Positions 20,399 through 45,579 are shown, counted from the stretch's first letter. The stretch: 64,000 bases of DNA from Candidatus Nomurabacteria bacterium (GCA_026395915.1 JAPLXU010000013.1:16428-80427), one strand, 5' to 3'. Made by a program: numbers and translations. Notes: a model not told the origin generated them from the sequence alone.

Positions 20399-21346
20399 AT
20401 GGCAAATAGGCACCTTTCAAGATCAATAGTACTCCAAACACTTTTCGAGTGGGACTTCTTGCCTGCAGGAAAGAAGATCGATGACGCCGAAAGCGAAAAA
20501 ATCAAAAAAGCGTTAGAAAGAAATCTAAAAGAATTTGCTCCCGGACTTGAGGATGATGATTTTGTGTTTTCTCTCATGGATGAAATTCTGAAGAAGCAAG
20601 AAGAGATCGATAAGATCATAGTGGCGTCGGCGCCGGACTGGCCGATCGAAAAGATTTCTGTCATCGATAGGAATATTTTGAGAATTGGTCTGACTGAACT
20701 TTTATTCGGCGATAGGTCGCAAGTGCCTCCAAAGGTTGCTATCAACGAAGCTATAGAATTGGCAAAAACTTTCGGTGGGGAAAATTCCGGCAAGTTTGTG
20801 AACGGCGTGCTTGGGGCAGTTTACAAAGAAATGGGCGAGCCTGAAAAAGAGCACCAAAAGTCTTCCAAAAAAAAGAACATCGCTGGTCAAAAAGAAAAAA
20901 ATGAAGTGGTTGATATTAGTAAGTTGCCTGTAGAAAAAAAAGGAGGAGCGTTAGTGTACGCAAAAAAAGATGGGAGTATTTTCTTTGCTTTAGTGCATGA
21001 TGTTTTCGGATATTGGACTATTTCAAAAGGCAGTATTGAAAAAGGAGAAAGCGAAGAAGTGGCGACAGTTAGAGAAATTAAAGAAGAAATTGGGCTTGAT
21101 ATTACGATAGAAGAAAGACTCGGGGAGAACGAATATGTCGCGACGCATCCTGCCAAAGGCAAAAGTCTGAAAAAAGTCGTGTATTTTCTCGCTTACAGCG
21201 AATACAAAGAGCTCCAGCTTGAAAAATCTGGCGGGCTTGATGGCGCTAGATGGTTCGAGATGTCAGAGATTCCAGAACTCCGCATTTACAACGATATTAT
21301 TCCACTTATCACAAAAGCGGTTGAAATTATTAGTAAAAAACGCTAG
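20399..21346 (+). CDS. nusB: NusB antitermination factor fused to a C-terminal NUDIX hydrolase domain
   Basis: N-terminal 140 aa match NusB ([25 protein letters not shown]...[26 protein letters not shown]). C-terminus has a complete Nudix box: [23 protein letters not shown] (Gx5Ex7REUxEExGU). Confidence 0.75.
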
Positions 21347-21439: not shown

Positions 21440-22135
21440 ATGATCCAATTTTCAAATTTTGAGAAAAAAACAAAAATAATTTTTAAAAATAAAAATCTGC
21501 TAGAGCAGGCTTTTATTCACCGCTCATATATAAACGAAAATCCGGGAACCAAATTGTCGCACAATGAGAGGCTTGAGTTTTTGGGCGACGCCGTGCTAGA
21601 ACTCGTCGTGACAGATTTTCTTTTCAAAAAATATCCGAATTATGCGGAAGGAGAACTGACCGCCTTGCGTTCGGCTCTGGTTAACGCGGTTATTATTTCT
21701 GAAATTGCGACCGGTCTCGGTATGAATGATTTTTTGCTCTTATCAAAAGGTGAGACAAAAGATAACGGCAAAGCAAGACAGTATATTTTGGCAAACACGT
21801 ACGAAGCGTATATCGGCGCCTTGTATCTCGACCAAGGCATCGAGGCAGTGGATAAATTCGTGCACAAATCGCTCTTGCCGAAGACCGAGGAAATAGTTTC
21901 AAAAAAACTTTGGCGTGACGCGAAGTCTCTAGTTCAGGAAAAGGCGCAAGAATTCGTGAACGTCACGCCCGCTTACAAAGTTTTGCACGAGTCTGGCCCC
22001 GACCATGACAAGCATTTTACAGTTGGCATTTATTTCGGAGGCAATTTGATTGCGGAAGGCAAGGGTAAATCAAAGCAAGAAGCGGAGCAAAAAGCCGCCG
22101 AAGCGGCGCTCAAAACAAAAAATTGGCTAGATTAA
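21440..22135 (+). CDS. rnc: Ribonuclease III
   Basis: Signature ERLEFLGDAVLELVVTDFLF and a C-terminal dsRBD (…GKGKSKQEAEQKAAEAAL). Confidence 0.9.
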   Translation: MIQFSNFEKKTKIIFKNKNLLEQAFIHRSYINENPGTKLSHNERLEFLGDAVLELVVTDFLFKKYPNYAEGELTALRSALVNAVIISEIATGLGMNDFLLLSKGETKDNGKARQYILANTYEAYIGALYLDQGIEAVDKFVHKSLLPKTEEIVSKKLWRDAKSLVQEKAQEFVNVTPAYKVLHESGPDHDKHFTVGIYFGGNLIAEGKGKSKQEAEQKAAEAALKTKNWLD

Positions 22136-22156: not shown

Positions 22157-23848
22157 ATGCAAGCGCAAAATAAAAAATGTCAGAATTGCAAAAAGGACTT
22201 CACGATAGAGTCGGAAGATTTTAATTTCTATGAAAAAATCAAAGTGCCTGCGCCCTCTTGGTGCCCTGAGTGTCGAATGATGCGAAGATTGAATTGGCAG
22301 GGATATCGGATTTTGTACAAAAGGAAATGTGATTTCACGGGAGAGATGATGTTCAGCACGTATCATCAAGATTCTCCATATAAAGTCTATCGCCAAGATA
22401 TTTGGTGGTCAGACAAATGGGATCCGAAAAGTTACGGAAAAGATATCGATTGGAATAGACCGTTTCTTGAACAATTCAAAGAGTTGATGTTAGAAGTTCC
22501 ACACGCTTCTTTAGCCACTGGACATTCGACGATGATTCGTAGCGATTATTGTAATGCGGCCTCAGAGTGTAAAGATTGTTATTTATGTTTTCGCATCACT
22601 GGCGGAGAGGACAGCGCGTATTTGAATACCATTGTCGATGGCAAGCAGTCTTTTGATTGTTCTTTTTTGAATCATTCCGAACTTTGTTATGGATCTACAA
22701 ATATAAATAAATGCTATCAGACTTTCTTTTCACAAGATTGCGCGGAGTGCCATTCTATCTGGTTCTCGCGCGATTTAGTCGGATGTTCTGATTGCATAGG
22801 CTGTATCAATTTGCGTATGAAGCAATATTGCATTTTCAACAAGCAATACAGCAGGGAAGAGTACAAGAAAAAATTTATGGAATTCGATTTCGGAACACTG
22901 GCAAAAATACAAAATTTCCAAAAAGAGACGGAAGAATTCACGAAAAAAGAACCGAGAAGACAATTTCATGGAGTAAAAAACACCAATGTCTCCGGAGAAT
23001 ATATTTCCAATTCAAAAAATGTGCACGATTCGTACCTGTTTGCAAACGGGCTCGATTTGCGATACTGCCAATTTTTAAAAAACGGACCGGCATCCTCATC
23101 CTATGACTGGTCGTTTTTTGGCGACAACGCAGAATTGATGTATGAATGTTGTTGGTGCGGACTGGATTCTCATAATGTGAAATTCAGTTCATGGAATTAT
23201 TACAATCATGATGTCGAGTATTGTTTCGGTTGCCATCATTCCAGCAACCTGTTTGGCTGTGTGAGTTTGATAAAAGGGGAATATTGCATCTTAAACAAAC
23301 AGTATTCGAAAGAAGAATATGAAAAATTAGTTCTTAAAATAAAAAAGCAAATGGCAGAAATTCCATACGAAGATAGACTTGGCAGAGAATATCGTTATGG
23401 CGAAATGTTGCCTGCGGAACTTTCACCGTGGTCTTATAACGAAGCGACAGTCTTCGAATGGTTTCCTCTTAAAAAGGAAGAGGCGGTTGCGAAAGGTTTT
23501 AACTGGCGCGATCCGGATTTGCGCGAATACAAAGATGCGACTGTGGAAATCCCGAGTCATATAAAAGACGTGGAGGACGATGTTTTGCAAGCAATCTTGA
23601 AATGTGTCTCTTGTGGAAAAAATTATCAAATTATTCCAAAAGAATTGCAATTTTTGCGCCGTTTCAATCTTCCGATTTCAGACAATTGTCCACTTTGTCG
23701 AGATCGAGCTCGTATTAAACAACTGAACCCGATGCAGATTTATAATCGTGAATGCGCAAAATGTGGCAAAGAAATTAAGACTTCCTATGCACCTGACCGT
23801 CCGGAAGTAGTATACTGTGAAAAGTGTTACCAACAAGAAGTGTATTAG
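22157..23848 (+). CDS. Cys-rich multi-zinc-ribbon/CxxC-repeat protein, paralog A (unknown function)
   Basis: 563 aa. N-terminal double Zn ribbon KCQNCKK..FYEKIKVPAPSWCPECR..RKCDFTGE. Two internal halves each ending GC.NLR.K.YCIFNKQY.REEY. C-terminal ribbon ..LCPLCR...ECAKCGKEIKTSYAPDRPEVVYCEKCYQQEVY. Confidence 0.7.
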   Translation: MQAQNKKCQNCKKDFTIESEDFNFYEKIKVPAPSWCPECRMMRRLNWQGYRILYKRKCDFTGEMMFSTYHQDSPYKVYRQDIWWSDKWDPKSYGKDIDWNRPFLEQFKELMLEVPHASLATGHSTMIRSDYCNAASECKDCYLCFRITGGEDSAYLNTIVDGKQSFDCSFLNHSELCYGSTNINKCYQTFFSQDCAECHSIWFSRDLVGCSDCIGCINLRMKQYCIFNKQYSREEYKKKFMEFDFGTLAKIQNFQKETEEFTKKEPRRQFHGVKNTNVSGEYISNSKNVHDSYLFANGLDLRYCQFLKNGPASSSYDWSFFGDNAELMYECCWCGLDSHNVKFSSWNYYNHDVEYCFGCHHSSNLFGCVSLIKGEYCILNKQYSKEEYEKLVLKIKKQMAEIPYEDRLGREYRYGEMLPAELSPWSYNEATVFEWFPLKKEEAVAKGFNWRDPDLREYKDATVEIPSHIKDVEDDVLQAILKCVSCGKNYQIIPKELQFLRRFNLPISDNCPLCRDRARIKQLNPMQIYNRECAKCGKEIKTSYAPDRPEVVYCEKCYQQEVY

Positions 23849-23897
23849 GGAAATACATATTTAAGCCATGGCGTAAATATGTATTTGAAGTAAAAAC

Positions 23898-25643
23898 ATG
23901 AAACAAGAAACAAAAAAATGTCAGAATTGCAAAAAAGAATTCACGATAGAGTCGGAAGATTTTAATTTTTACGAAAAAATAAGAGTGCCCGCGCCGACTT
24001 TTTGTCCTGAATGCAGATTGATCAAGCGTCTGCTTATGCGCAACGAGCGCACTCTTTATAAGCGAAAATGCGATTCTTGCGGTGAAGAAAAAATACTAGT
24101 TTTCCCGAAAGAAAGCGAATATAAAGTCTATTGCCACACTTGTTTTTACAGCGATGATTGGGACGGGCAAACTTATGAAAAAGATTACGATTTTTCTAAA
24201 ACTTTTTTTGAGCAATACAAAGAGCTATATGACAGTGTTCCCAGATTGGGAATTGCTAAACAAGGCTTTCAAGTGAACAGCGAATATGTAAATCGCGCGA
24301 GCGACGTGAAAAATTGTTATCTTATTTTTGCAAGCAACGTCAACGAAGATTGTTATTATGGCGTGGCATATTGGGAATCAAAAAATTGCATGGATTGCTA
24401 TAACGCACGAAAATGTGAGAGGTGTTATGAGTGCATAGATTGTTATAAATGTAACGGCGTGAAGTATTCGAAAGAATGCAACGAATGCATCGATTCCTAT
24501 TTCTTGAACAATTGTCGAAACTGCCAAAATTGTTTCGGTTGCACGAATTTAAGAAATAAAAGTTACTGCATTTTTAACAAGCAATACACGAGGGAAGATT
24601 ATTTGGCGACAATTTCCGAACTCAAGCTTTCGAACGGGGCGGAAATAGAGAAAATCGAAAAAGAAGTGAAAAAGGAATCTCTAAATTACGTTGTACCTTG
24701 CATCGTGGAAAAACATTCGGTGAATGTTTCCGGCAATTGGATTGAGAATTCAAAAAATGTGCAGAATTCTTATAATTGCGACAGGGTGGAAGATGGAAAA
24801 TATTTGTTTGGTGTTTCTGACGCCAAGGACGCTATGGATAACACATATTGGGGAGCAGGAAGCGAGCTAATTTATGAATCGTCCAGTATCGGCAGGCAAT
24901 GTTCGTCGGTATTTTTCTCGAATGAATCTTGGGATCAATTGGTACGAGCTGAGTATTGCATCAATTGTTTTGCTTCCTCGGACTTGTTTGGTTGTGTGGG
25001 GCTTCGCAAAAAGCAGTATTGCATTTTGAATAAACAATATACGAAAGAAGAGTACGAAGAATTGGTTCCTAAAATCAAAGAGCAAATGAAAAATATGCCT
25101 TTTGTGGACAACGTCGATAGAACTATCAGTTATGGCGAATTTTTCCCATCTGACATGCTTCCTTTTGCCTATAATGAATCTATAGCGCAAGAATATTTTC
25201 CAAAAACCGAAAAGGAAGCGCTTGCCGAAGGATATCGCTGGAGAAAACCGGATACGAAAAATTATGTTCCGACAATGTCGGCCGATGAATTGCCGAAAAA
25301 TATTAAACTGGTCAACGACAATATCACAAGTGAAATAATAGCTTGCGCGCACGAAGGGAAGTGCAACGAGCAGTGCACAACCGCTTTCAAAATTGTTTTC
25401 AATGAATTGCAATTTTACCGCGCAAACAATATACCGCTTCCGAAACTTTGCCCGAATTGCCGTCACTACGAAAGATTACTGAAACGCCAGCCGATAAAAC
25501 TCTGGCACAGGCAATGCATGTGTGACAAAGAAAATCACATTCACGGCGCGAATGTTTGCGAAACAGAATTTGAAACTTCATACGCTCCAGACAGGCCGGA
25601 GATTGTTTATTGCGAAAAATGTTATCAACAAGAAGTGTATTGA
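23898..25643 (+). CDS. Cys-rich multi-zinc-ribbon/CxxC-repeat protein, paralog B (unknown function)
   Basis: 581 aa. Same architecture and identical C-terminal 22 aa (TSYAPDRPE.VYCEKCYQQEVY). Central run of C-x2-C units at 9-12 aa spacing. Confidence 0.7.
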   Translation: MKQETKKCQNCKKEFTIESEDFNFYEKIRVPAPTFCPECRLIKRLLMRNERTLYKRKCDSCGEEKILVFPKESEYKVYCHTCFYSDDWDGQTYEKDYDFSKTFFEQYKELYDSVPRLGIAKQGFQVNSEYVNRASDVKNCYLIFASNVNEDCYYGVAYWESKNCMDCYNARKCERCYECIDCYKCNGVKYSKECNECIDSYFLNNCRNCQNCFGCTNLRNKSYCIFNKQYTREDYLATISELKLSNGAEIEKIEKEVKKESLNYVVPCIVEKHSVNVSGNWIENSKNVQNSYNCDRVEDGKYLFGVSDAKDAMDNTYWGAGSELIYESSSIGRQCSSVFFSNESWDQLVRAEYCINCFASSDLFGCVGLRKKQYCILNKQYTKEEYEELVPKIKEQMKNMPFVDNVDRTISYGEFFPSDMLPFAYNESIAQEYFPKTEKEALAEGYRWRKPDTKNYVPTMSADELPKNIKLVNDNITSEIIACAHEGKCNEQCTTAFKIVFNELQFYRANNIPLPKLCPNCRHYERLLKRQPIKLWHRQCMCDKENHIHGANVCETEFETSYAPDRPEIVYCEKCYQQEVY

Positions 25644-25663: not shown

Positions 25664-27934
25664 ATGCGACTCAAGACACTTGAAATAAATGGCTTTAAAT
25701 CTTTTGCCCAGAAAACCGTTTTGGAATTCAATAACAGCATCGTCTGCGTGGTTGGCCCGAATGGTTCTGGAAAATCAAATGTTGTAGAAGCTCTCCGTTA
25801 TGTTTTGGGCGAGCAATCTATGAAGTCAATGCGCGGAAAGTCGGGTTTAGACCTTATTTTTAAAGGCTCAAAAAGCTTGTCCAAAGGTTCACGCGCCGGT
25901 GTCACAATCTATTTTGACAATTCCGACAAGGTTTTCAAACTTTCAAATAGCGAAGGAGGGGAGATAAATTTGAATTATGAAACTGTCAGCATTTCTCGCG
26001 AAGTTTATTCTGATGGATTGAACAAGTACATTTTGAATGGCTCGGAAGTTAGGTTGAAAGATATTCACAATCTCTTGGCGTCGGTCAATATCGGTTCCTC
26101 AGGACATCACATCATTTCTCAAGGTGAGGCGGATAGAATTTTAAACGCAAACATGGTGGACAGACGTGAGATGGTGGAAGACGCGCTCGGTCTCAAAATT
26201 TATCAATACAAAATAAAAGAAAGCGAGAGGAAACTCGAGCGAACGGAAGAAAACATGAAAGAGGTGACTCTTCAACGAAGAGAAAACGCTCCGCATTTGA
26301 ATTTTTTAAAAAAACAAGTAGAGAAGTTTGAGAAAGCAAAAGAAATGCAGGCCGACTTGGCTATTTTATATAAAGAATATTTAAGCAAGGAAAGTGTTTA
26401 TCTTGAAAATGAAAAAAACACGCTATCTCTTCAAAAAGATAAACTAAAAAGTGAACTTGAAAACGTTGCAAGCAAAATTTCAGCTACTGAAGATAACAAT
26501 TCTGCCGAGGGTAATAAAAAAATAAACGCCTTGCGTGTCGTTGAAGGCAATTTGAATTCTATTCGCGGAATGAAATCTGAAATGGAGCGCAAGCTCGGCA
26601 GAATAGAAGGAATGATCGAAATGGAAACTCGCAGGGCGGAACAAAATATCGCCGTTGTTGAAATTTCACAAGAAGAAATTAAAGCCGTTATCGCCGACAT
26701 CAACAATTCTATCGATGAAGCTATTTCCAAGAATGACGTGAGCGAAGTTAAACCAATTTTGGAGCGTATCAAAAGTATCTTGAAGAAATTCTCTTCGCAA
26801 AATACAGAAAAGTCCGGCGAAAATATCGAAATAAAAAATCTTAAACAAAGCCAGCAGGAGATTCTCGAAGAGATGAAGGGGATAGAGAGCAAGGAAAAAG
26901 ATATTGCAAAATCAGCAGAACTGCTCAAACAAGAAATAAACAAAGAGATGGAAGCCTTGCGGGATCTCGAACGAGAGAAATTCACTTGGAAGGTCAGGCA
27001 ACAAGAGTTGTCTTCTGCTTTAGAACTTACAGCGATCAAAGAAGGGAATCTAAAAAGCCGAACCGAAGCTTTTCTTAATGAGATAAAAGAAGGTGTGGCG
27101 CTGATCGGGCAAGAGATTTTGGCTTACAAAGATGAAGTTGCGGAAGCCTTGCTTCCGCCAGCTGGCGGAAGCAAGGCTTCCGCAACAACTCAAGAAGAAT
27201 TGAAACGCAAAATTGAAAGGATAAAAATAAAATTGGAAGATGCCGGCCTCGGCAGTGGCGCGGAAGTCCTGAAAGAATTCAAAGAAGTTTCGGAGAGGGA
27301 TGGATTTCTGGCTAAAGAAATGGAAGATTTAGCGAAAAGCATAGAGTCATTGGAAAAATTAATCGCAGATCTCAAAGAAAAAATAGATTTGGAATTCAAA
27401 GAAGGCGTTAGAAAAATCAATGTGGAATTTCAGGAATTTTTCTCTCTAATGTTCGGCGGGGGAACAGGTTCTCTTTCTATCGTGGTTGAAAATAAGAAGA
27501 AAAGGAAAAACGAGTTTGAAGAGGATGAATCTGTCGACGTCGAAAGCTCTGGCGAGTCGAAGGAAGAAATCGTGTTTGAAAAGGGGATAGAAATAAATGT
27601 TTCTCTTCCGCACAAGAAAGTCAAAGAGCTCAATGCTTTTTCAGGGGGAGAAAGATCGCTCACTTCCATCGCGCTTCTTTTTGCCATGTCGCAAGTCAAT
27701 CCGCCGCCATTTCTCGTTTTGGACGAGACCGATGCGGCGCTCGACGAAGCAAACTCTCGCAAATATGGAGACATGCTTGAGAAGTTGTCCAAACATTCAC
27801 AGCTCATCGTCGTCACCCACAATCGTGAGACGATGTCTCGAGCGGGTGTGCTTTATGGAGTGACGATAGGAAGCAACGGAGCCTCAAAACTTCTTTCTGT
27901 GAAATTCGACGAAGCAACTGCTATCGCGAAATAA
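25664..27934 (+). CDS. smc: SMC-family ATPase (short SMC-like chromosome segregation protein)
   Basis: N-terminal Walker A GPNGSGKSN. Long coiled coil. C-terminal signature FSGGERSLTSIALLFAM and Walker B/D-loop FLVLDETDAALD. 756 aa. Confidence 0.7.
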   Translation: MRLKTLEINGFKSFAQKTVLEFNNSIVCVVGPNGSGKSNVVEALRYVLGEQSMKSMRGKSGLDLIFKGSKSLSKGSRAGVTIYFDNSDKVFKLSNSEGGEINLNYETVSISREVYSDGLNKYILNGSEVRLKDIHNLLASVNIGSSGHHIISQGEADRILNANMVDRREMVEDALGLKIYQYKIKESERKLERTEENMKEVTLQRRENAPHLNFLKKQVEKFEKAKEMQADLAILYKEYLSKESVYLENEKNTLSLQKDKLKSELENVASKISATEDNNSAEGNKKINALRVVEGNLNSIRGMKSEMERKLGRIEGMIEMETRRAEQNIAVVEISQEEIKAVIADINNSIDEAISKNDVSEVKPILERIKSILKKFSSQNTEKSGENIEIKNLKQSQQEILEEMKGIESKEKDIAKSAELLKQEINKEMEALRDLEREKFTWKVRQQELSSALELTAIKEGNLKSRTEAFLNEIKEGVALIGQEILAYKDEVAEALLPPAGGSKASATTQEELKRKIERIKIKLEDAGLGSGAEVLKEFKEVSERDGFLAKEMEDLAKSIESLEKLIADLKEKIDLEFKEGVRKINVEFQEFFSLMFGGGTGSLSIVVENKKKRKNEFEEDESVDVESSGESKEEIVFEKGIEINVSLPHKKVKELNAFSGGERSLTSIALLFAMSQVNPPPFLVLDETDAALDEANSRKYGDMLEKLSKHSQLIVVTHNRETMSRAGVLYGVTIGSNGASKLLSVKFDEATAIAK

Positions 27935-27935
27935 G

Positions 27936-28668
27936 AACTACGGAGGCGTTGCCTCCGTAGTTCGGCTACAACTAATTATTATCAAAGTTAAGCCATTCAA
28001 ATAGCTCTTTTTTGTGATCGTCAGGATTTTTAAAATATTCAGGGAATTGAGAAGGATTTATAATTTTGAACTTTTTGTCTTTATATTCTTTTAAACTTGA
28101 ATATGAGTAAGAAAAAACATATTTTAGTAAATTTGCTACATTTCGATTTTTATTTTCTTTCCAGTTTTTATCTATTAGTTTTGCCGGATTTAAATGTATG
28201 TATGAATAAAGATATTTTAAATAATTATCACTGTTTGCGTGGATTGATTTGAATACACTCTCGTACAATTTTCCGGTCCTCTCATATTTTTTATTGAAAT
28301 ACATTGAATAACTGGTCATAAGTTTAAGCATATATTTTGAGATTCCGTGTTCTATTTTCTCATGAACCAGAATGTGAAAATGATTAGGCATTAGACAATA
28401 TGTTCCAATATCAATAATAGTTTCCCCACGATCAAAATTCTCGCCAATATTTCTTAATTCTATACTTTTTGCTGTGTTGCAGATGTACATTAAAAATAGG
28501 AAGTGCTTATGGTCCTGTTCATCCAGAAATATTGTTCTTTTTTCTGTACCACGATTATATAAATGATAATACTCACCTGGAGCAAAAACTTGTTTTCGTA
28601 AAGTCATGTATAAAGTATAGCAAATAACTACTACGGAGGCAATGCCTCCGTATGTTCTCCGTATGTTA
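27936..28668. mobile_element. IS200/IS605-like minimal element (tnpA only) with subterminal hairpins
   Basis: Hairpins tacggaggc-gtt-gcctccgta (27939-27959) and tacggaggc-aat-gcctccgta (28632-28652) flank the HUH transposase gene. Tandem ctccgtatgtt x2 at 28647-28668. Confidence 0.6.
27972..28607 (-). CDS. tnpA: IS200/IS605-family HUH-Y1 transposase (RAYT-like TnpA)
   Basis: HuH motif NHFHILV. Catalytic Tyr region YLYSYIHLNP. 211 aa. Paralogous to 61795-62451. Confidence 0.7.
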   Translation of the reverse strand: MTLRKQVFAPGEYYHLYNRGTEKRTIFLDEQDHKHFLFLMYICNTAKSIELRNIGENFDRGETIIDIGTYCLMPNHFHILVHEKIEHGISKYMLKLMTSYSMYFNKKYERTGKLYESVFKSIHANSDNYLKYLYSYIHLNPAKLIDKNWKENKNRNVANLLKYVFSYSYSSLKEYKDKKFKIINPSQFPEYFKNPDDHKKELFEWLNFDNN

Positions 28669-34361: not shown

Positions 34362-37300
34362 TTGTTTTGCTTTGGATTTTTGCTTTTGGCTTTAGTGGCT
34401 GTTGCCTTTGTAAAATTTTCTCCGGTATCTGCTACAGTATCATCTACCTCTGCAACCGTTCTCGCCAAATCCGATCTCCTCCAATTCACTTCGCATGGTC
34501 AAGTTATCGGTTTCCAAAACACAGGCTTTATCCTCGCATCTCCCACACACATGCTCAAAATTGATTTTTTAAATTCCAACAACATCACGCCAGTATCAGA
34601 TAGCGCGCCAACCACACCTTCCACTTCTACCACCTTACCTTCCACAACAGAAAAAGCCGCTCCGCTTACAAAAGTTACTTACTCCAATGTTTGGAATGGC
34701 ATAGATATTGTTTATGAAGCCAACAAAGATTCTCTGATGAAAAGCACCTATTATGTTGATATCACAAAGCAAGGAGTTTCTCCAGACAGTATCAAGCTTC
34801 ACTACAACCGTCCTCTTTCTTTGGATAAAAATAAAAGTCTCACAATCAAATATGACATTGGCACAATCACCGAATCAGCTCCTCTCGCTTGGCAAATAAT
34901 AAATAACAAAAAAGTTTTTGTACCAATTTCTTACAAACTTATAAACGAAAATGATATCGGATTTACTCTTGGAGCTTACACTCCAAATATTCCAATAGTC
35001 ATCGATCCCACTTATACATGGAATCCTTTTTTGGGAGGAAGCGGGAGTGATACTGGCCACGGGATTGCGGTAGACGTTAATGGAAACGTTTATGTCAGTG
35101 GTTATAGTAGTTCCACATGGGGTTCACCTGTGCGAGCATATACTGATGGTGGTGATGCCTTTGTAGCAAAACTCAGTAGCACAGGAATTCTTATCTGGAA
35201 CACCTTTTTGGGTGGAAATGGAGAAGATTATGGTTTTGGTGTCGCCGTAGATACAAACGGAAATGTTTATGCTACTGGATACAGTAATGATACATGGGGG
35301 GTAACACCAGTGCGATCATATACTTCAAGCACTGATGCTTTTGTCGTTAAACTTGATAGTGCGGGCGTATTAACTTGGAATACTTTCTTGGGAGGTAGTA
35401 GAGAGGATCAAGGAAATGGAATCGCCGTAGACATCAGCGGAAATGTTTATGTTACCGGAACTACTAGTGGCGCCACTTGGGGTTCACCTGTAAAAGCATA
35501 CCTGTCAACTCAAGATGCTTTTGCCGCTAAAATCAGTAGTGCTGGCGCTCTCACATGGAATACTTTTGTGGGTAGGAGTAGTACTGTTGGTCAAGGAATA
35601 GCAGTTGATACTAGTGGTAATGTTTACATTGCTGGAAGTGTTGGTGGTGGCTCCGGTTTTGCCTCTATTGTTAGAGCATATACCTCATCTAATGATGGCT
35701 TTGTTGTAAAATTCGCAAATAATGGCGCTCTCACGTGGACCTCTTTTTTGGGTGGAAATGGAGGTGATGAAAGTTACGCAATTGCAGTTGACACGATTGG
35801 AAATATTTACGTAACTGGACTCAGCGACACCACTTGGGGTTCACCAGTGCGAGCGTATTATGGTTCTAGTTACGATATTTGGGCAGCTAAGCTAGATACT
35901 AATGGCGCTCTTACGTGGAATACTTTTTTAGGCGATAGTGGTAATGACTATGGCTACGGGATCGCTATCGACATTAATGGAAACGTATATGTCGTTGGAT
36001 ACACTTCAGCCACTTGGGGTTCACCAGTGAGAACATACTCTTCCGGTCTTGATGTCTTCGCCGCTAAACTTGATGGTGTTGGTACTCTTGTATGGAATAC
36101 TTTTTTGGGAGGAAATGAGACCGATGTTGGTTACGGTATCGCTATCGACATTAATGGAAATGTTTATATTGGCGGGGCTGGTCCCACTACCTGGGAATCT
36201 CCAACAATTGCTCATGATTTAGGAGCCAACACAGATGCCTTTGTAGCCAAGTTAACCTCCCTTGGCGCTCTCACCACCATCATCGTTCCCACAATCACTC
36301 CAACAGCAGGAAGTAACGGTGCAATATCTCCAAGTGTTCCAACTGATGTAACAAGCGGTGGCAGCCAATCCTTCACCCTCACCCCATCAGCTCACTACCA
36401 CGTAGCCGATGTATTAGTCGACAGTGTCTCTCAAGGGGCAATAACTTCATACACTTTTTCAAATGTCACAGGAGATCACGCAATCTCTGCCACCTTTGCC
36501 ATAGACACCCAAACAGTTACCTTCAACAAAAACGGTGGTGACACAGAAGCAAGTCCAACAACCAGAACAACTAATTACAATACAACAGTAACACTACCAA
36601 CAGCGCCAACAAAGACAGGTTATACTTTCTCTGGCTGGAACACAGCAGCCAATGGTTCAGGCACTGCATTCATAGGAAGCACTGCAGTTGTTGCAGATGT
36701 TACTGTATATGCTCAATGGACTATTAATAGTTATACTTTGACCTACACCGCCGGCTCTCATGGTTCAATCACAGGCACTTCTCCTCAAACAATCAATTAC
36801 GGTTCAAATGGTTCAGAAGTTACTGCTGTCCCAAATGCTCATTATCACTTTGTAAACTGGTCTGACTCTTCCATTACTAACCCAAGAACAGACACAAACA
36901 TAACTGACAATCTCTCTTTCTCAGCTAACTTTGCCATAACTACCCACACCCTCACTCCATCCTCAGATTCAAACGGTTCAATCAGTCCTTCCACATCAAC
37001 CACAATAAATGACGGTGACTCAGAAACCTTCACCATCATCCCAAACAACGGTTACCGCATCTCTGACATTCAAATAGACGGTATATCTCAAGGAACAATT
37101 GCTTCCTACACTTTCTCAAACGTTACAGATAATCACACTATCTCTGTCACCTTTGCTCGTCGTCCATCCGGTCGTCCCATAATTTCAATAACTCCACCGA
37201 CTCCAGTAGTTGCAACCCCTTCTCCTTCGACAAGCTCAGGACAAGCAACCACTCCGCCTCCTTACACAAATACAACAACAGTTTACAACTTCGGTACAAA

Positions 37301-37514
37301 AACTTTAAAGAATGGTAGCACTGGTGATGCAGTCAAAGAACTTCAAAGATTCTTGAATGCCAAGCTGAATCTTAATCTAACCATTGATGGCAAACTAGGT
37401 CCAAAGACTATTCTTGTCATCAAAGCATGGCAGAAAGCTCATGGTTTAACTCCTGATGGACTTATTGGAGCAAAGACGAAGGAGAGGATGAAAATCGAAG
37501 CGGAAAAATTCTAA
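34362..37514 (+). CDS. Large cell-surface protein: signal peptide, SBBP/beta-propeller repeats, Listeria-Bacteroides (InlB B-type) repeats, C-terminal peptidoglycan-binding domain
   Basis: ORF as listed starts at TTG (no in-frame ATG). More than 12 repeats of ..TW(G/N)SPVRAY.(S)..DAFV(A/V)KL..(G/A)(A/V)LTWNTFLGG. 'TGYTFSGWNTAANGSG...VYAQWT' repeat. C-terminus NGSTGDAVKELQRFLN...DGKLGPKT (PG_binding_1-like). Confidence 0.7.
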   Translation: MFCFGFLLLALVAVAFVKFSPVSATVSSTSATVLAKSDLLQFTSHGQVIGFQNTGFILASPTHMLKIDFLNSNNITPVSDSAPTTPSTSTTLPSTTEKAAPLTKVTYSNVWNGIDIVYEANKDSLMKSTYYVDITKQGVSPDSIKLHYNRPLSLDKNKSLTIKYDIGTITESAPLAWQIINNKKVFVPISYKLINENDIGFTLGAYTPNIPIVIDPTYTWNPFLGGSGSDTGHGIAVDVNGNVYVSGYSSSTWGSPVRAYTDGGDAFVAKLSSTGILIWNTFLGGNGEDYGFGVAVDTNGNVYATGYSNDTWGVTPVRSYTSSTDAFVVKLDSAGVLTWNTFLGGSREDQGNGIAVDISGNVYVTGTTSGATWGSPVKAYLSTQDAFAAKISSAGALTWNTFVGRSSTVGQGIAVDTSGNVYIAGSVGGGSGFASIVRAYTSSNDGFVVKFANNGALTWTSFLGGNGGDESYAIAVDTIGNIYVTGLSDTTWGSPVRAYYGSSYDIWAAKLDTNGALTWNTFLGDSGNDYGYGIAIDINGNVYVVGYTSATWGSPVRTYSSGLDVFAAKLDGVGTLVWNTFLGGNETDVGYGIAIDINGNVYIGGAGPTTWESPTIAHDLGANTDAFVAKLTSLGALTTIIVPTITPTAGSNGAISPSVPTDVTSGGSQSFTLTPSAHYHVADVLVDSVSQGAITSYTFSNVTGDHAISATFAIDTQTVTFNKNGGDTEASPTTRTTNYNTTVTLPTAPTKTGYTFSGWNTAANGSGTAFIGSTAVVADVTVYAQWTINSYTLTYTAGSHGSITGTSPQTINYGSNGSEVTAVPNAHYHFVNWSDSSITNPRTDTNITDNLSFSANFAITTHTLTPSSDSNGSISPSTSTTINDGDSETFTIIPNNGYRISDIQIDGISQGTIASYTFSNVTDNHTISVTFARRPSGRPIISITPPTPVVATPSPSTSSGQATTPPPYTNTTTVYNFGTKTLKNGSTGDAVKELQRFLNAKLNLNLTIDGKLGPKTILVIKAWQKAHGLTPDGLIGAKTKERMKIEAEKF

Positions 37515-37931: not shown

Positions 37932-40900
37932 ATGCATACAATAGCCAAGCGTCCGAAGAAGTATTTTTCTAGATACAAGAAACCTCTCGTCGAATTTCCG
38001 AATTTGATCGAGGCACAATTAAAAAGTTTTAAATGGTTGGTGGAGCAGGGAATCGGAGAAGTGTTCAAGGAATTTTCTCCCATTAGCGATTACTCCACAA
38101 AAAAGTTTCAGCTAGAATTCACTTCTTTCTCTCTTTCTGAATGCAAGTATGATGAAAATAATGCGAAGGTAAATAAACTTTCGTATCAAGGTCTCTTGAA
38201 AGCTCGAGTAAAATTGACGAACAAAGTTTTGGGCACTGTGAAAGAGCAGGAAATTTTCATGTCGGAACTTCCTCTCATGACGAATCACGGAACTTTTATC
38301 ATCAACGGTGTAGAACGCGTTATCGTTCCGCAACTCGCGCGAAGTTTTGGAGTTTTCTTTACAGAATCCGAAAGCAAAGGCAACAGATATTTTGGCGCCA
38401 AGATTATTCCTGCGCGAGGTGTTTGGATTGAGATAGAGTCGGAAGCTGATGGAGCCATTTATATAAGAATAGACAAGAAAAGAAAATTCCCTGCGACAGC
38501 GCTTCTGCGAGCTATGGGTTATGAGAGTAATGAGGATATTTTGAAGGCTTTTTCCACGAATTCTATTTTCGAAGAAACGATAAAAACTTGTTTGGCGAAA
38601 GACGGAGTTAAAAGTCTGAATGATTCGTATGTAGAAATCTACAAACGCTTGAGAGATGGAGATATGGCTACAGCGGAAAACGCAAAAGAATTTATCAATT
38701 CTTTGTTTACACCTGAGCGTTACGATCTTTCTCCTGTCGGCCGTTTCAGATTCAACCAACGTTTCGGGAAGCCTATGGATGAAGTGGCGCTCGCTCGTCG
38801 AACTATTTCCAAAGAAGATTTAGCGACGGTGATTATGAATATCATCACTTTGAATAATACTCCCGACGCAAAGAGCGATGATATAGATCACTTGGGTCAG
38901 AGACGTGTAAGATTTGTCGGCGAAATACTTCAACAGAAAGTTCGCACTGGTATGATGCAGATCAAGAGAAACATTCAAGACAGAATGTCTATTATCGACG
39001 TTGATACTGCGATGCCTATCGCCATTATCAACCAACGTCCGCTTCAAGCTCGAATAAAAGAATTTTTCACCACGAACCAGCTTTCCCAATTTATGGCGCA
39101 AGAAAATGTGCTTTACGAAATAGAACATTTGCGCACTCTTTCGGCTTTGGGACCCGGAGGTCTCACTCGCGAGCGCGCAGGACTCGAAGTCCGCGATGTG
39201 CATCCTTCTCACTATGGAAGAGTTTGTCCTATTCACACTCCTGAAGGTCCGAACATTGGGCTCATTTTGCACCTTTCCACTTACGCTAAAATAAATGATT
39301 TTGGAATTATTGAAACTCCATATGTAAAAGTTTCAAAAGGAAAAATCACCGGCGAAGTAGTTTACTTAAACGCGCTTGAGGAAGAAAAGTACAATATCGC
39401 GCATGCCGGAATTCCTTATGATGAAAGTGGAAGAATCACAGAAGAAAAAGTAGAAGCCAGAATCAAGACAGAGCCGGGTCAAGTTTCCCGCGATGAAGTT
39501 GATTTCATTGACGTCTCTCCCAACCAAGCTTTTTCGATAGCGACTTCAATGATTCCGTTTTTGGAACACAACAATGCAAACAGAGCATTGATGGGAAGCA
39601 ACATGCAGAAGCAGGCAGTGCCTTGCGTGTTGCCCGAAGCTCCTCTTGTCGCCACAGGCATAGAAGAATTAGCGGCTCGCGATGGAGGACGTTTGGTTAT
39701 CGCTGAAGAAGATGGTCTAATCTCTTATTTAGATGCGAAAAAAATAACTATCAAAGGGAAAAAAGAGCAGACTTATCCTCTTGTTAATTTTATGAGGAAT
39801 AACAACTTCGCTGTATTTCATCAGCGTCCGTTGGTGAATGTCGGTGATAAGGTGAAGAAGGGCGATGTGTTGGCGGATACCAGTAGCACAGTAGGTGGGC
39901 AAATTTCTCTAGGGCAAAATATTTTTGTTGCCTTTCTGTCTTGGTCTGGATCAACTTATGAAGATGCAATAGTTGTTTCTGAACGTTTAGTGAAAAAGAG
40001 TAAATTTACGTCGGTCTATGTCGAAGAATTCACTTGCGTTGTTCGTGATACGAAACTCGGACCTGAAATCACTACTCGAGATATACCAAACGTCGGGGAA
40101 CTCAAACTGAAAGATCTAGACGAAGATGGCATTGTTCGCATTGGCGCGGAAGTTAGAGAAAATGATATTTTGGTTGGTAAGATCACTCCAAAAGGTGAGA
40201 CAGAACTTACTCCAGAAGAGCGACTCTTGCGTTCGATTTTTGCCGAGAAGGCGCGAGATGTCAAAGACACATCACTCCGAGTGGAACACGGAAAACGCGG
40301 ACGCATTATTGGTGTGAAGATTTTTTCTCGCGATTTGGGACATACGCTTGAAGCGGGAATCATCAAAAAAATTGTGATTGAAGTGGCTCAGATTAGAAAT
40401 ATTTCGGTTGGAGACAAACTTTCCGGACGACATGGAAACAAAGGAGTTATCTCAAGAATTTTGCCTGAAGAAGATATGCCTTACATGGCAGATGGCACGC
40501 CGGTTGATATTATTTTGTCGCCACTTGGTGTTCCTTCTCGTATGAACTTGGGACAAATATTGGAAATGCATCTTGGTATGGCGGCAAACAGTCTCGGTTA
40601 TCAAGCTATCGTTCCGCCGTTTTTGGGAGCTAAACACGAGGAAATCAGTCAAGAATTGGAAAAAGCCGGATTGCCAGCAAATGGAAAAGTGAAACTTTTT
40701 GACGGACGCACCGGAGAAGCTTTTGAACAAGATGTCGCTGTCGGTTATATGTACATGTTGAAACTTCATCACATGGTGGAAGACAAGATTCACATGCGTT
40801 CTATTGGACCTTATTCTTTAATCACTCAACAGCCTCTCGGCGGAAAAGCTCAAGGCGGTGGACAGAGATTCGGGGAAATGGAAGTCTGGGCGCTCGAAGG

Positions 40901-41102
40901 TTACGGCGCGGCTTATACTTTGCGTGAAATGCTTACTATTAAGTCTGACGATATTCTAGGTCGTTCGCAGACTTTTGATTCTATTATCAAAAATGAAATG
41001 ATTCGACCGCCAAATTCACCAGCTTCGTTCAATGTGCTCCTAAATTACTTGCGAGGGTTGGCGCTTGATGTGAATTTAAAGAAAGGCGTAGACGAGAAAT
41101 AA
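37932..41102 (+). CDS. rpoB: DNA-directed RNA polymerase subunit beta
   Basis: Full-length conserved RpoB (…GPGGLTRERAGLEVRDVHPSHYGRVCPIHTPEGPNIGL…). Confidence 0.95.
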   Translation: MHTIAKRPKKYFSRYKKPLVEFPNLIEAQLKSFKWLVEQGIGEVFKEFSPISDYSTKKFQLEFTSFSLSECKYDENNAKVNKLSYQGLLKARVKLTNKVLGTVKEQEIFMSELPLMTNHGTFIINGVERVIVPQLARSFGVFFTESESKGNRYFGAKIIPARGVWIEIESEADGAIYIRIDKKRKFPATALLRAMGYESNEDILKAFSTNSIFEETIKTCLAKDGVKSLNDSYVEIYKRLRDGDMATAENAKEFINSLFTPERYDLSPVGRFRFNQRFGKPMDEVALARRTISKEDLATVIMNIITLNNTPDAKSDDIDHLGQRRVRFVGEILQQKVRTGMMQIKRNIQDRMSIIDVDTAMPIAIINQRPLQARIKEFFTTNQLSQFMAQENVLYEIEHLRTLSALGPGGLTRERAGLEVRDVHPSHYGRVCPIHTPEGPNIGLILHLSTYAKINDFGIIETPYVKVSKGKITGEVVYLNALEEEKYNIAHAGIPYDESGRITEEKVEARIKTEPGQVSRDEVDFIDVSPNQAFSIATSMIPFLEHNNANRALMGSNMQKQAVPCVLPEAPLVATGIEELAARDGGRLVIAEEDGLISYLDAKKITIKGKKEQTYPLVNFMRNNNFAVFHQRPLVNVGDKVKKGDVLADTSSTVGGQISLGQNIFVAFLSWSGSTYEDAIVVSERLVKKSKFTSVYVEEFTCVVRDTKLGPEITTRDIPNVGELKLKDLDEDGIVRIGAEVRENDILVGKITPKGETELTPEERLLRSIFAEKARDVKDTSLRVEHGKRGRIIGVKIFSRDLGHTLEAGIIKKIVIEVAQIRNISVGDKLSGRHGNKGVISRILPEEDMPYMADGTPVDIILSPLGVPSRMNLGQILEMHLGMAANSLGYQAIVPPFLGAKHEEISQELEKAGLPANGKVKLFDGRTGEAFEQDVAVGYMYMLKLHHMVEDKIHMRSIGPYSLITQQPLGGKAQGGGQRFGEMEVWALEGYGAAYTLREMLTIKSDDILGRSQTFDSIIKNEMIRPPNSPASFNVLLNYLRGLALDVNLKKGVDEK

Positions 41103-41105
41103 AAT

Positions 41106-41936
41106 ATGGACAAAAATCAATTGGCTATTTTTGAAAACTTTAAAATAAGAAGGCATTATAACGAGAAAGAAGAAGTCTGGTATTTTTCAGTGGTTGATAT
41201 TATTGGAGCGCTTTTAGATCAGAATGATTTTCAAAAATCTAGAAGTTATTGGAAAAAGCTGGCACAACGACTCAGAGAGGAGGGAAGTCAAGTGGTGACA
41301 AATTGTCACCGGTTGAAAATGGTGGCAGCTGATGGAAAAATGAGAGAAACTGATGTAGCTAGTGTAGAAACTATTTTACGCATTATTCAAACAGTGCCAA
41401 GTAAAAGAGCTGAACCATTTAAGCTCTGGCTGGCGAAAGTTGGTTATGAAAGATTGCAGGAAATGGCTGATCCGGAAAAATCAATAAACAGAGCAAGAGA
41501 AAATTGGCAAAAACATGGACGTAGCAATCAATGGATACAGCAAAGAATGATGGGGCAGGAAATTAGAAACAAGCTCACGGATTATTGGAAAAATAATGAA
41601 GTAAAAGAAAAAAAAGAATATGCCATTTTGACGAATATTATTCACGAAGAATGGAGCGGTGTTTCTGTCCAAAGTCATAAAAAAATGAAGGGGCTAAAAA
41701 CTCAAAACTTGCGCGATCATATGTCCGACGCGGAATTGGTTTTTACCGCTTTGGCTGAATTATCCACCAGACAAATTGCTGAAACGATGGAAACAAAAGG
41801 ATTGGAAGAAAATAAAATTCCAGCAATAAAAGGTGGAAGCATTGCCAAAAATGCGCGAAAATCATTGGAGGCAAAAACTGGAAAGCCAGTGGTAACCGGC
41901 AAAAATTTTTTATTAGCAAGTGAAGTTAAAAAGTAA
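41106..41936 (+). CDS. Bro-N domain / DinD-like (DNA-damage-inducible protein D family) protein inserted between rpoB and rpoC
   Basis: N-terminus IFENFKIRRHYNEKEEVWYFSVVDIIGAL = Bro-N fold motif. Remainder (…RAEPFKLWLAKVGYERL…) resembles DinD-like proteins. Confidence 0.55.
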   Translation: MDKNQLAIFENFKIRRHYNEKEEVWYFSVVDIIGALLDQNDFQKSRSYWKKLAQRLREEGSQVVTNCHRLKMVAADGKMRETDVASVETILRIIQTVPSKRAEPFKLWLAKVGYERLQEMADPEKSINRARENWQKHGRSNQWIQQRMMGQEIRNKLTDYWKNNEVKEKKEYAILTNIIHEEWSGVSVQSHKKMKGLKTQNLRDHMSDAELVFTALAELSTRQIAETMETKGLEENKIPAIKGGSIAKNARKSLEAKTGKPVVTGKNFLLASEVKK

Positions 41937-41940
41937 ACAT

Positions 41941-44900: not shown

Positions 44901-45579
44901 AGTTGTTGAGATAAAAGTCAAAGATGAGAAAGAGAAAATCATCAAAGTATTGTCCGATATTAAAGCCGACGGGAAAGGGGGTGATAAGAAAAATGAAATG
45001 GAATATATTGTGGCTTTTCATCGAACGCCGACAGTTAAAGTTGGCGACCACGTGAAAGCGGGCGACCTTTTGACTGACGGATCGGCTGATATTGCTGAGA
45101 TCTTCAAATTCGGTGGCAAGGAATTGGTTGAAAGATATATCATTCGAGAAATAAATAAAGTTTACGAATTGCAGAGCGCTTCGATTAGCAGAAAGCACAC
45201 GGAAATAATCATCCGCCAGATGTTCTCACGTCGAAAAATAAAAGATGCGGGTATCACCAATTTTTCGATTGGTGATATTGTTGAGAATACTGCATTTATA
45301 GAGGAAAATCAAAGAGTTGCTGGGTTAGATAAAAAAATAACTGAAGATGAAATTGGAGGACAGGCAAAAGCAGAAACAGTTGTACTCGGCATTACCGAAG
45401 TCTCGCTTCGTACAAAGAGCTGGCTCTCTGCCGCTTCGTTCCAAAACACAAATCGTGTTCTTATTGAAAACGCAATAAAAGGGGGAGTAGACGACCTACG
45501 AGGATTGAAAGAAAATGTCATAATCGGGCGACTCATTCCGGCCGGAACTGGGTTTAAAAATAAGATAAAGGCTGAATAA
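41941..45579 (+). CDS. rpoC: DNA-directed RNA polymerase subunit beta'
   Basis: Zn-binding CxxC..CxxC, NADFDGD catalytic motif, trigger loop, C-terminal domains. Start placed at ATG 41941 (the listed ORF 41920 start overlaps the upstream gene). Confidence 0.95.

Follow-up and report, generated by a model that had tools for sequence, protein, structure and literature searches.

Few uncultured bacteria are as abundant as Parcubacteria, whose genomes measure only about 1 Mb. Type IV coupling proteins (T4CPs) carry C-terminal extensions that bind adaptors, as in the pairs TraD-TraM and DotL-IcmSW. In the Candidate Phyla Radiation (CPR), a protein-family survey found families enriched in Parcubacteria to be mostly hypothetical, and a second survey counted 5,713 VirD4-like T4CPs in 2,918 genomes, with only 148 near virB4, and left their possible exaptation open (bioRxiv 10.1101/2025.01.22.634366). 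A CxxC-x17-CxxC domain of small M. mazei proteins binds zinc, as shown by inductively coupled plasma mass spectrometry (PMC12704099). Here we examine a 64,000-nucleotide stretch (the window) of a Candidatus Nomurabacteria metagenome-assembled genome (GCA_026395915.1, JAPLXU010000013.1:16428-80427), which encodes two adjacent cysteine-rich paralogs, A and B. They belong to a large family that is specific to Parcubacteria-type bacteria in the records sampled and that recurs beside a soluble VirD4-like ATPase whose long form carries the same type of finger as the family termini.

This partner was recovered by clustering all open reading frames (ORFs) around 83 family-centred loci, 26 of which contain the ATPase gene, usually immediately before the family genes and in the same orientation. 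The ATPase is a coupling protein of the VirD4/TraD/TrwB type with matches to TrwB_AAD_bind (up to 59 bits), DUF87 and TraG-D_C and a weak match to the TrwB structure; its Walker A motif lies at residues about 35-65, and 31 of 32 copies lack a transmembrane (TM) segment. All nine long-form copies (650-804 aa) bear a C-terminal finger of the form CSxCxK(E/D)TxVPFKPEPGRPVYCKxC, which in the copies scanned scores 41.8-48.7 bits against PF23477 (zf_Tbcl_2; cutoff 27 bits). The reciprocal test used an independent collection of 80 ATPase-centred loci and found family genes in 45 of them (30/47 among those of at least 9 kb); a family gene stands immediately after the finger-bearing ATPase in 26 of 49 cases. 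Co-occurrence expected by chance in a 12-kb interval is about 2-3%, a rough figure that takes about two T4CPs per assumed genome of about 1 Mb, compared with 31-64% observed. Neither virB4 nor a relaxase appears among the recurrent neighbours of the loci examined, although virB4 was not specifically searched for. A reading made from the sequence alone had instead described a candidate system located right after rnc and had raised the conservation of its rnc and smc neighbourhood as a point to check. Neither gene lies within 6 kb of any of the 83 loci, and the 83%-identical ortholog of B stands as a single copy with hpf on one side and fmt/def on the other, so the position after rnc is an accident of this strain and the two genes were dropped as functional context. 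A 76% ortholog lies within a six-gene array.

Two arrangements of the linked genes recur. The first reads (grpE) FAM FAM(FAM) <wHTH dnaK x T4CP-long FAM(FAM) T4CP-short dnaJ, where FAM is a family gene and wHTH a winged helix-turn-helix protein; the second, in 16 of the 80 loci, consists of a Sigma70_r4/HARE-HTH protein, a two-TM protein of 461 aa, the ATPase and a family gene. The gene after the short-form ATPase is dnaJ in 13 of 42 cases and a family gene in 7, and a family gene precedes it in 14 of 47. Two membrane proteins accompany these arrangements. One, about 461 aa long, has two N-terminal TM helices and immediately precedes the ATPase (within L087-L160, for example L091:2389-3780, L094, L095 and L099) and is usually preceded by the protein with Sigma70_r4 and HARE-HTH; it has no Pfam or NCBIfam match and might supply the membrane anchor that the ATPase lacks. 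The other is a conserved 196-aa protein that follows the short-form ATPase and dnaJ (L141:11798-14479, L137:14032-16660 and 11 other loci), an order that seems to place an orphan T4CP inside the Hsp70 operon in many Paceibacteria.

The family itself comprises at least 7,979 clusters at 90% identity. At 50% identity there are 4,877 clusters with E<=1e-3, of which 2,085 have E<=1e-30, and the best 150 of these share one architecture, most being 530-615 aa long and the shorter ones apparently truncated. Species representatives in GTDB yield at least 593 matches; the best 80 carry Patescibacteria/Parcubacteria-type or unspecific labels (Nomura-, Staskawicz-, Lipton-, Jorgensen-, Giovannoni-, Sungii- and Niyogibacteria, Paceibacterota, Minisyncoccia), with the exception of one Burkholderiales record. 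A 267-kb contig labelled 'Burkholderiales bacterium' (L057, JAMPXW010000002.1) has a locus typical of Parcubacteria, in which the ATPase and the 196-aa membrane protein accompany four family copies; it is probably a CPR contig that was mis-binned or mislabelled. The Parcubacteria-type family also turns up in many SPIRE-type bins that bear the label 'Candidatus Saccharibacteria'. Source names of the homologues are all 'hypothetical' or a generic finger label. Family loci commonly hold several genes, with 2-7 co-directional copies within 6 kb in 55 of 83, and many Parcubacteria genomes contain at least 4-7 copies of this 1.7-kb gene, so that by our estimate roughly 1% or more of coding capacity is given to a family of unknown function. 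A set of 196 copies falls into 65 clusters at 50% identity, and a paralog 31% identical to A and B forms an orthogroup of its own (582-aa proteins, 55-85% identity), which together indicate that the paralogs are ancient, individually conserved and presumably non-redundant. Few pairs recur in the order of the 65 paralog types within arrays, a point that bears on the idea of a fixed hetero-oligomer.

Within the window A and B are the only family copies. As first noticed in the sequence, they are adjacent paralogs, with 42% identity from end to end (E 3e-151), and their last 22 residues are nearly identical, at 21 of 22 positions. Near their 5' ends an 83-nucleotide stretch (A 22172..22254, + strand; B 23913-23995) has 91.6% DNA identity, far higher than the rest of the genes (73% over codons 6-60), and may reflect local gene conversion or a constraint at the nucleotide or RNA level.

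In B the domain order is an N-terminal zinc module (1-85), linker helices, a first solenoid half with a cap motif and a helix, a second half with the same motif and a helix, an acidic middle domain (401-478) and a C-terminal zinc module (479-581). Alignment of family sub-alignments with hhalign shows the terminal modules to be homologous (1-100 vs 478-581; 99.3%, E 1.4e-20) and likewise the central halves (118-245 vs 270-400; 99.5%, E 4e-23), both of which end in GC.(N/G)LR.K.YCI.NKQY..EEY. The sequence-only reading was therefore right about an echo of the N-terminal module at the C-terminus and about duplicated halves with a shared closing motif; its symmetric architecture holds for the duplications, and the layout is one of tandem duplication rather than mirror symmetry. 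In the N-terminal module of B a conserved basic helix, CRxxRRLxxRNERxLYKRKC, lies between site 1 and a zf_Tbcl_2-like site 2 (C58,C61/C79,C82; CxxC-x17-CxxC), while the C-terminal module contains site 3, C483(H485,C489)C493/C518,C521, and site 4, C540(C542)C554/C572,C575. The N-terminal double zinc ribbon reported for both proteins is thus present in B; A has lost three of the four ligands of site 2 (C61T, C79R, C82I) and so has no double ribbon there. AlphaFold2 with 72 mostly orthologous sequences gave a mean predicted local distance difference test (pLDDT) score of 83, and with 147 diverse family members a pLDDT of 93.4 and a predicted TM-score (pTM) of 0.93, values that predict one compact body. 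Foldseek comparison of both models with the PDB returned no significant neighbour, and sequence searches of the PDB no significant match; the predicted fold is without counterpart among solved structures. No TM segment was found in 169 family copies. Coordinates are collected in Table 1.

Table 1. Coordinates of the paralogs, their modules and the features next to them, counted from the first nucleotide of the window
Feature	Coordinates	Strand	Remarks
rnc (RNase III)	21440..22135	+	21 nt before A, adjacent in this strain alone; no part of a conserved unit
Paralog A	22157..23848	+	563 aa, 34 Cys; NCBI MCX6752249.1, 'hypothetical protein'; second N-terminal zinc site degenerate
A N-terminal zinc module, residues 1-85	22157..22411	+	Site 1 intact; site 2 retains C58 only
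A C-terminal finger, residues 528-563	23738..23845	+	CxxC-x17-CxxC, CAKCGKEIKTSYAPDRPEVVYCEKC; best curated match PF23477, 25.1 bits (cutoff 27)
36-bp palindrome in the 49-nt A-B gap	23851..23886		13-bp perfect arms, 10-nt loop
Paralog B	23898..25643	+	581 aa, 41 Cys; MCX6752250.1, 'hypothetical protein'; four terminal zinc sites all present
B N-terminal zinc module, residues 1-85	23898..24152	+	Site 1 C8,C11/C36,C39 (zf_Tbcl-like CxxC-x24-CxxC); AlphaFold2 pLDDT 96-97
B solenoid half 1, residues 126-230	24273..24587	+	Period-3 Cys/Ser ladder; terminal cap motif CFGCTNLRNKSYCIFNKQY; pLDDT 75-96
B solenoid half 2, residues 269-381	24702..25040	+	Homologous to half 1, far fewer Cys; terminal LFGCVGLRKKQYCILNKQY
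B acidic middle domain, residues 401-478	25098..25331	+	Conserved; YGEFFP...PFAYNE..AQEYFP...G.RW; no database match
B C-terminal zinc module, residues 479-581	25332..25640	+	Homologous to N-terminal module
Short SMC-like ATPase, 756 aa	25664..27934	+	20 nt after B, adjacent in this strain alone

The cysteines of these proteins fall into two classes. Their number, put at about 50 per protein before, is lower by count (Table 1), and family members have a median of 39 (range 24-48). In a 256-sequence family alignment the terminal zinc ligands are 86-100% conserved and are lost together as sets (C61/C79/C82, phi 1.0; C493/C518/C521, phi 0.8-0.9), which is the signature of real metal sites. C61, C79 and C82 are jointly absent in 27% of the family, including A, which defines a conserved subtype without the second zinc site; arrays that mix copies with and without this site are common (29/51 in a crude regular-expression census of zinc-site states). 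The solenoid cysteines are 31-96% conserved, are mostly replaced by Ser and less often by Val, Leu or Ile, and have pairwise phi values mostly of 0.0-0.3, with a maximum of 0.5 in half 1 and 0.7 for one pair in half 2 (C294/C335). Instead of C-x2-C units spaced 9-12 aa apart, as had been described, half 1 has a strikingly regular Cys/Ser pattern of period 3 (spectral power 2.69, with <0.12 at all other periods). In half 2 this signal drops about 6-fold, to 0.42, and core-type residues have an additional weaker period of about 12. Many half-1 Cys positions of B are filled by other residues in half 2 and in A.

The sequence-only reading had suggested a multi-metal-binding beta-solenoid, taken here as one in which every CxxC unit would ligate a metal, zinc or iron-sulphur. 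Nearly independent and replaceable solenoid cysteines do not support such a chain of metal sites, and co-loss is confined to the terminal ligand sets; half 2 and A retain the fold motifs with far fewer cysteines; and no CxxCxxCxxxCP motif of 4Fe-4S ferredoxin type and no match to an Fe-S family was found, the solenoid phi values being mostly <=0.3. We therefore regard a multi-metal solenoid as very improbable. The substitution pattern is better described by a tight solenoid whose core would be packed by small Cys and Ser side chains, forming neither a chain of metal sites nor obligatory disulfides, and the terminal ligand sets would correspond to three structural zinc ions per chain in A and four in B. 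A cysteine-rich protein is accordingly not the same as a metal-rich one, and covariation tells real zinc sites from a Cys/Ser packing ladder.

To account for the gene linkage, we propose that A and B are cytoplasmic structural-zinc proteins that act as partners of a soluble hexameric ATPase of the VirD4/TrwB type, serving as its adaptor or client subunits, and we assign this a probability of about 35%. They would be soluble members of a Parcubacteria-specific family in which two homologous finger pairs (CxxC-x24-CxxC, basic helix, CxxC-x17-CxxC) cap a duplicated narrow beta-solenoid and an acidic middle domain, with most cysteines serving as small core residues and zinc held at only 2-4 terminal sites. 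The long-form ATPase bears the same CxxC-x17-CxxC finger on its C-terminal extension, and the fingers could be shared docking or nucleic-acid-binding modules, while the variable solenoid and middle domain would provide the specificity of each member in these sets of ancient, individually conserved, non-redundant paralogs. The pair in the window would be a dispersed copy of such an array, inserted between rnc and smc, with which it probably shares a transcript. Since the module lies within the (grpE-)dnaK-dnaJ region in many genomes, use under proteotoxic or other stress is suggested; the interaction with the ATPase, the direction of action and the physiological role are what we infer from these associations.

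Several observations weigh against this proposal. The window has no VirD4-like ATPase within its 64 kb, and 57 of 83 family loci and 35 of 80 ATPase loci have no partner within the available sequence, some of the contigs being short. Many linked loci come from related Paceibacteria with shared synteny, so that the linkage counts lack phylogenetic independence, and genes in genomes as small as these normally stand in long co-directional strings. The basic character of the zinc modules is slight (+3 to +4), which makes nucleic-acid binding not compelling, and both proteins of the window fall below the curated cutoffs of PF23477 and TIGR04272. A broader and more tentative suggestion is that the family, the finger-bearing ATPase and, in part of the range, the two-TM protein form an unrecognised Parcubacteria-specific ATP-driven machine. 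If true, this would explain thousands of 'orphan' T4CPs kept away from any type IV secretion system (T4SS), and the paralogous solenoids would be interchangeable specificity subunits or cargo in host interaction, Hsp70-linked proteostasis or nucleoprotein handling. The linkage in any case names a candidate partner for the VirD4-like ATPases of the CPR and makes the question of their exaptation testable.

The same observations can be read in other ways. The proteins could be stand-alone nucleic-acid binders whose finger pairs and basic helices clamp RNA or DNA independently of the ATPase, with paralog-specific targets as in pentatricopeptide-repeat (PPR-like) proteins, and in the window they could have a relation to RNase III or SMC. 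The basic helix residues R40, R44, R48, R51 and K55-K57 are invariant or nearly so in the B-type alignment, the zinc modules carry a net charge of +3/+4, the paralog sets are stable and non-redundant, one source annotation reads 'Zn ribbon nucleic-acid-binding protein', and A and B do lie between rnc and smc. This adjacency recurs at none of the other loci described above, the whole protein is acidic (median net charge -4), and apart from the fingers of unknown function no known nucleic-acid-binding domain and no such fold match was found; we consider this reading unlikely. DNA mimicry by an acidic solenoid was discarded, as the net charge is only mildly negative. Somewhat less likely again is that the arrays encode effectors exported through a patescibacterial T4SS or another channel into the host cell of the episymbiont. 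Substrate recruitment is the canonical role of a T4CP, diversified paralog arrays adjoin the ATPase, the two-TM protein lies directly upstream of it in 16 of 80 loci, often after the Sigma70_r4/HARE-HTH protein, the extreme C-terminus is highly conserved, as is usual for the place of T4SS signals, and CPR T4SSs lack conjugation components and have a role that is still open. The ATPases, however, lack the N-terminal membrane anchor of canonical T4CPs; few T4CPs of the CPR lie near virB4 (148/5,713), and in Ca. Southlakia epibiotic growth did not require the T4CP; the conserved C-terminus is a folded zinc finger rather than a disordered signal; the paralogs are ancient, at 55-85% identity, unlike fast-evolving effectors; Pfam, NCBIfam and PADLOC scans detect no toxin or enzyme domain; and the family is often found in the dnaK/dnaJ region.

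That last location invites a further reading, in which the proteins are a stress or redox chaperone or a thiol buffer of the heat-shock regulon that releases zinc or forms disulfides on oxidation and passes clients to DnaK/DnaJ and the ATPase. Family genes recurrently lie between grpE and dnaK and before dnaJ, DnaK and DnaJ are encoded in 22 and 18 of the 80 ATPase-centred loci, and many free cysteines exist besides the zinc sites; the zinc-ribbon redox chaperone Ruc of M. tuberculosis offers a precedent (PMC7448276). The linkage is, however, mainly that of one syntenic Paceibacteria group and is missing from most family loci, the proteins show no similarity in sequence or fold to Hsp33, Ruc or the DnaJ cysteine-rich (CR) domain, and multiple conserved paralogs are unexpected for a generic holdase, all of which makes this reading improbable. 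Finally, tandem duplication and the loss of one zinc site in A might indicate degenerating, pseudogenised or non-expressed repeats, an outcome that would have spoken against the sequence-only reading. Both ORFs are intact and co-directional, two further public assemblies contain the A-B pair with identical DNA, full-length orthologs number in the thousands, with each paralog type conserved across many genomes, and the form without the second zinc site is a conserved subtype. Over the final 24 codons A and B agree in 21 amino acids but in only 10 codons, a sign of purifying selection at the protein level, and the probability of degeneration is negligible. Partnership with the ATPase remains the reading that we prefer.

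The gap between A and B contains the palindrome first seen in the sequence, with its perfect arms (Table 1). As RNA it forms a stable hairpin (-15 kcal/mol, z -3.9), and it has no T-run and is not terminator-like. A survey of co-directional intergenic gaps of 25-200 nt in the 83 family loci (L001-L083) found perfect stems of at least 9 bp in 11 of 37 family-family gaps (30%) vs 36 of 231 others (16%), and in about 0.6% of shuffles of the family-family set. Hairpins of this kind seem to be widespread between genes throughout these genomes. A family-specific element or a terminator was accordingly rejected, and the palindrome is one of many generic intercistronic hairpins rather than a family hallmark; it may act as a processing or stability element.

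The surrounding window is a housekeeping stretch with ligA, an addA-like helicase-nuclease, pheT, gyrB, thrS, rpmF, a nusB-NUDIX fusion, rnc, smc, rnr, rpoB, rpoC and dnaG. The fusion is a 315-aa ORF (20399-21346, +) in which NusB carries a C-terminal NUDIX hydrolase domain. The SMC-like gene is unusually short, Pfam recognising only an SMC_N head and no hinge at E<=0.001, and its coding sequence contains a perfect 50-bp palindrome (27137-27186) of two 25-nt arms without a spacer, GTTGCGGAAGCCTTGCTTCCGCCAG and CTGGCGGAAGCAAGGCTTCCGCAAC. Just downstream of this gene, an IS200-like Y1 transposase (27972-28607, -; PF01797, 26.7 bits) is flanked by GC-rich hairpins at 27935-27963 and 28632-28652 with the common core TACGGAGGC...GCCTCCGTA, and the whole resembles an element of the RAYT/REP type. 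The rpoBC operon has an unusual insertion exactly between rpoB (37932-41102) and rpoC (41920-45579), a 276-aa ORF (41106-41936, +) with a Bro-N domain (26.1 bits). A possible surface or adhesion protein of the episymbiont is encoded at 34362-37514 (+); its 1050 aa include SBBP beta-propeller repeats, DUF7948, Listeria-Bacteroides (Flg_new) repeats and, at the C-terminus, a peptidoglycan-binding domain.

Sequence libraries place the terminal fingers only approximately. Against PF23477 (Pfam, 27 bits) and TIGR04272 (36 bits), A scores 25.1 and 22.5 bits and B 18.3 and 14.6 bits; we therefore term the fingers zf_Tbcl_2-like and do not count the proteins as curated members. The CxxC-x17-CxxC spacing is found in A at 532-556 (CAKC-x17-CEKC) and in B at 58-82 (CDSC-x17-CHTC), and the C-terminal finger of B has an insertion in its first knuckle, C540/C542...C554-x17-C572xxC575. 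In a Pfam scan of 72 relatives 40 match zf_Tbcl_2 at E<=1 (best 5.5e-9) and 7 match zf_Tbcl (PF13451; best E 0.0015), which neither A nor B does at E<=1, and nothing matches the central 400 residues; one array member has a 'faint' precomputed zf_Tbcl match. The terminal motif also resembles CxxC...F.(F/I)...E..FY...P..C..CR, which we take to be the zf_Tbcl consensus. The only PHROGs match is a weak one of the central part to phrog_15341, of unknown function (E 6e-5 / 8e-4), and the PADLOC anti-phage defence models match neither A nor B. Assignment to a curated family was thus set aside, since Pfam, NCBIfam, PHROGs and PADLOC together give sub-threshold finger matches and this one weak match. 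A phage origin, suggested by one source label, 'putative phage protein', was likewise rejected, as no relatives were found in IMG/VR viral contigs. Literature and database searches found, within the library covered, no characterised family, solved structure or paper describing the protein core. The sequence-only reading, which could assign no characterised family, is upheld by the lack of a core model in these libraries and of any significant fold or sequence hit in the PDB.

Comparison with known systems accounts for the parts of these proteins more readily than for the whole. The terminal modules resemble zf_Tbcl, zf_Tbcl_2 and TIGR04272 (the M. mazei small proteins) in Cys spacing, exactly so at the C-terminus of A and site 2 of B; those proteins, however, are single small domains of unknown function, whereas here two finger pairs surround about 400 residues of solenoid and middle domain. 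LIM domains also place two adjacent zinc sites in about 60 residues, but differ in ligand spacing and in the intervening basic helix; only 5 of 72 members match PF00412, weakly (best E 0.0055), and the family profile matches an avian CRP LIM domain at a non-significant E of 0.2 (518-578). The closest kinds of narrow beta-solenoid are insect and plant antifreeze or ice-binding proteins, curli CsgA, left-handed beta-helix acyltransferases and YadA/UspA1 heads. Neither the [LIV]-G-x4 hexapeptide periodicity and model match of the left-handed beta-helix (PF00132) nor the paired conserved cysteines and secretion of the disulfide-laddered antifreeze beta-helix (TmAFP/CfAFP) was found in the family. 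Like Hsp33, Ruc and the DnaJ Cys-rich domain, the family is rich in Cys and Zn and is encoded with dnaK, dnaJ and grpE in part of its range, but it shares no sequence or fold similarity with them and is much larger, multi-paralog and solenoid. The building blocks, zinc fingers and a beta-solenoid, are known; their assembly and the pairing with orphan T4CP-like ATPases fit no known system, and the newness is that of an uncharacterised, unplaceable kind rather than of a demonstrated new mechanism. Canonical T4CPs (VirD4/TraD/TrwB) are membrane-anchored, whereas the ATPase here has no anchor, and known T4CP adaptors and relaxosome proteins show no similarity to the family. T4CP systems with their substrates or adaptors nonetheless offer a parallel: the family is tightly and co-directionally linked to a TrwB_AAD_bind/TraG-D_C ATPase, and that ATPase likewise has a C-terminal extension carrying a module shared with its presumed partner.

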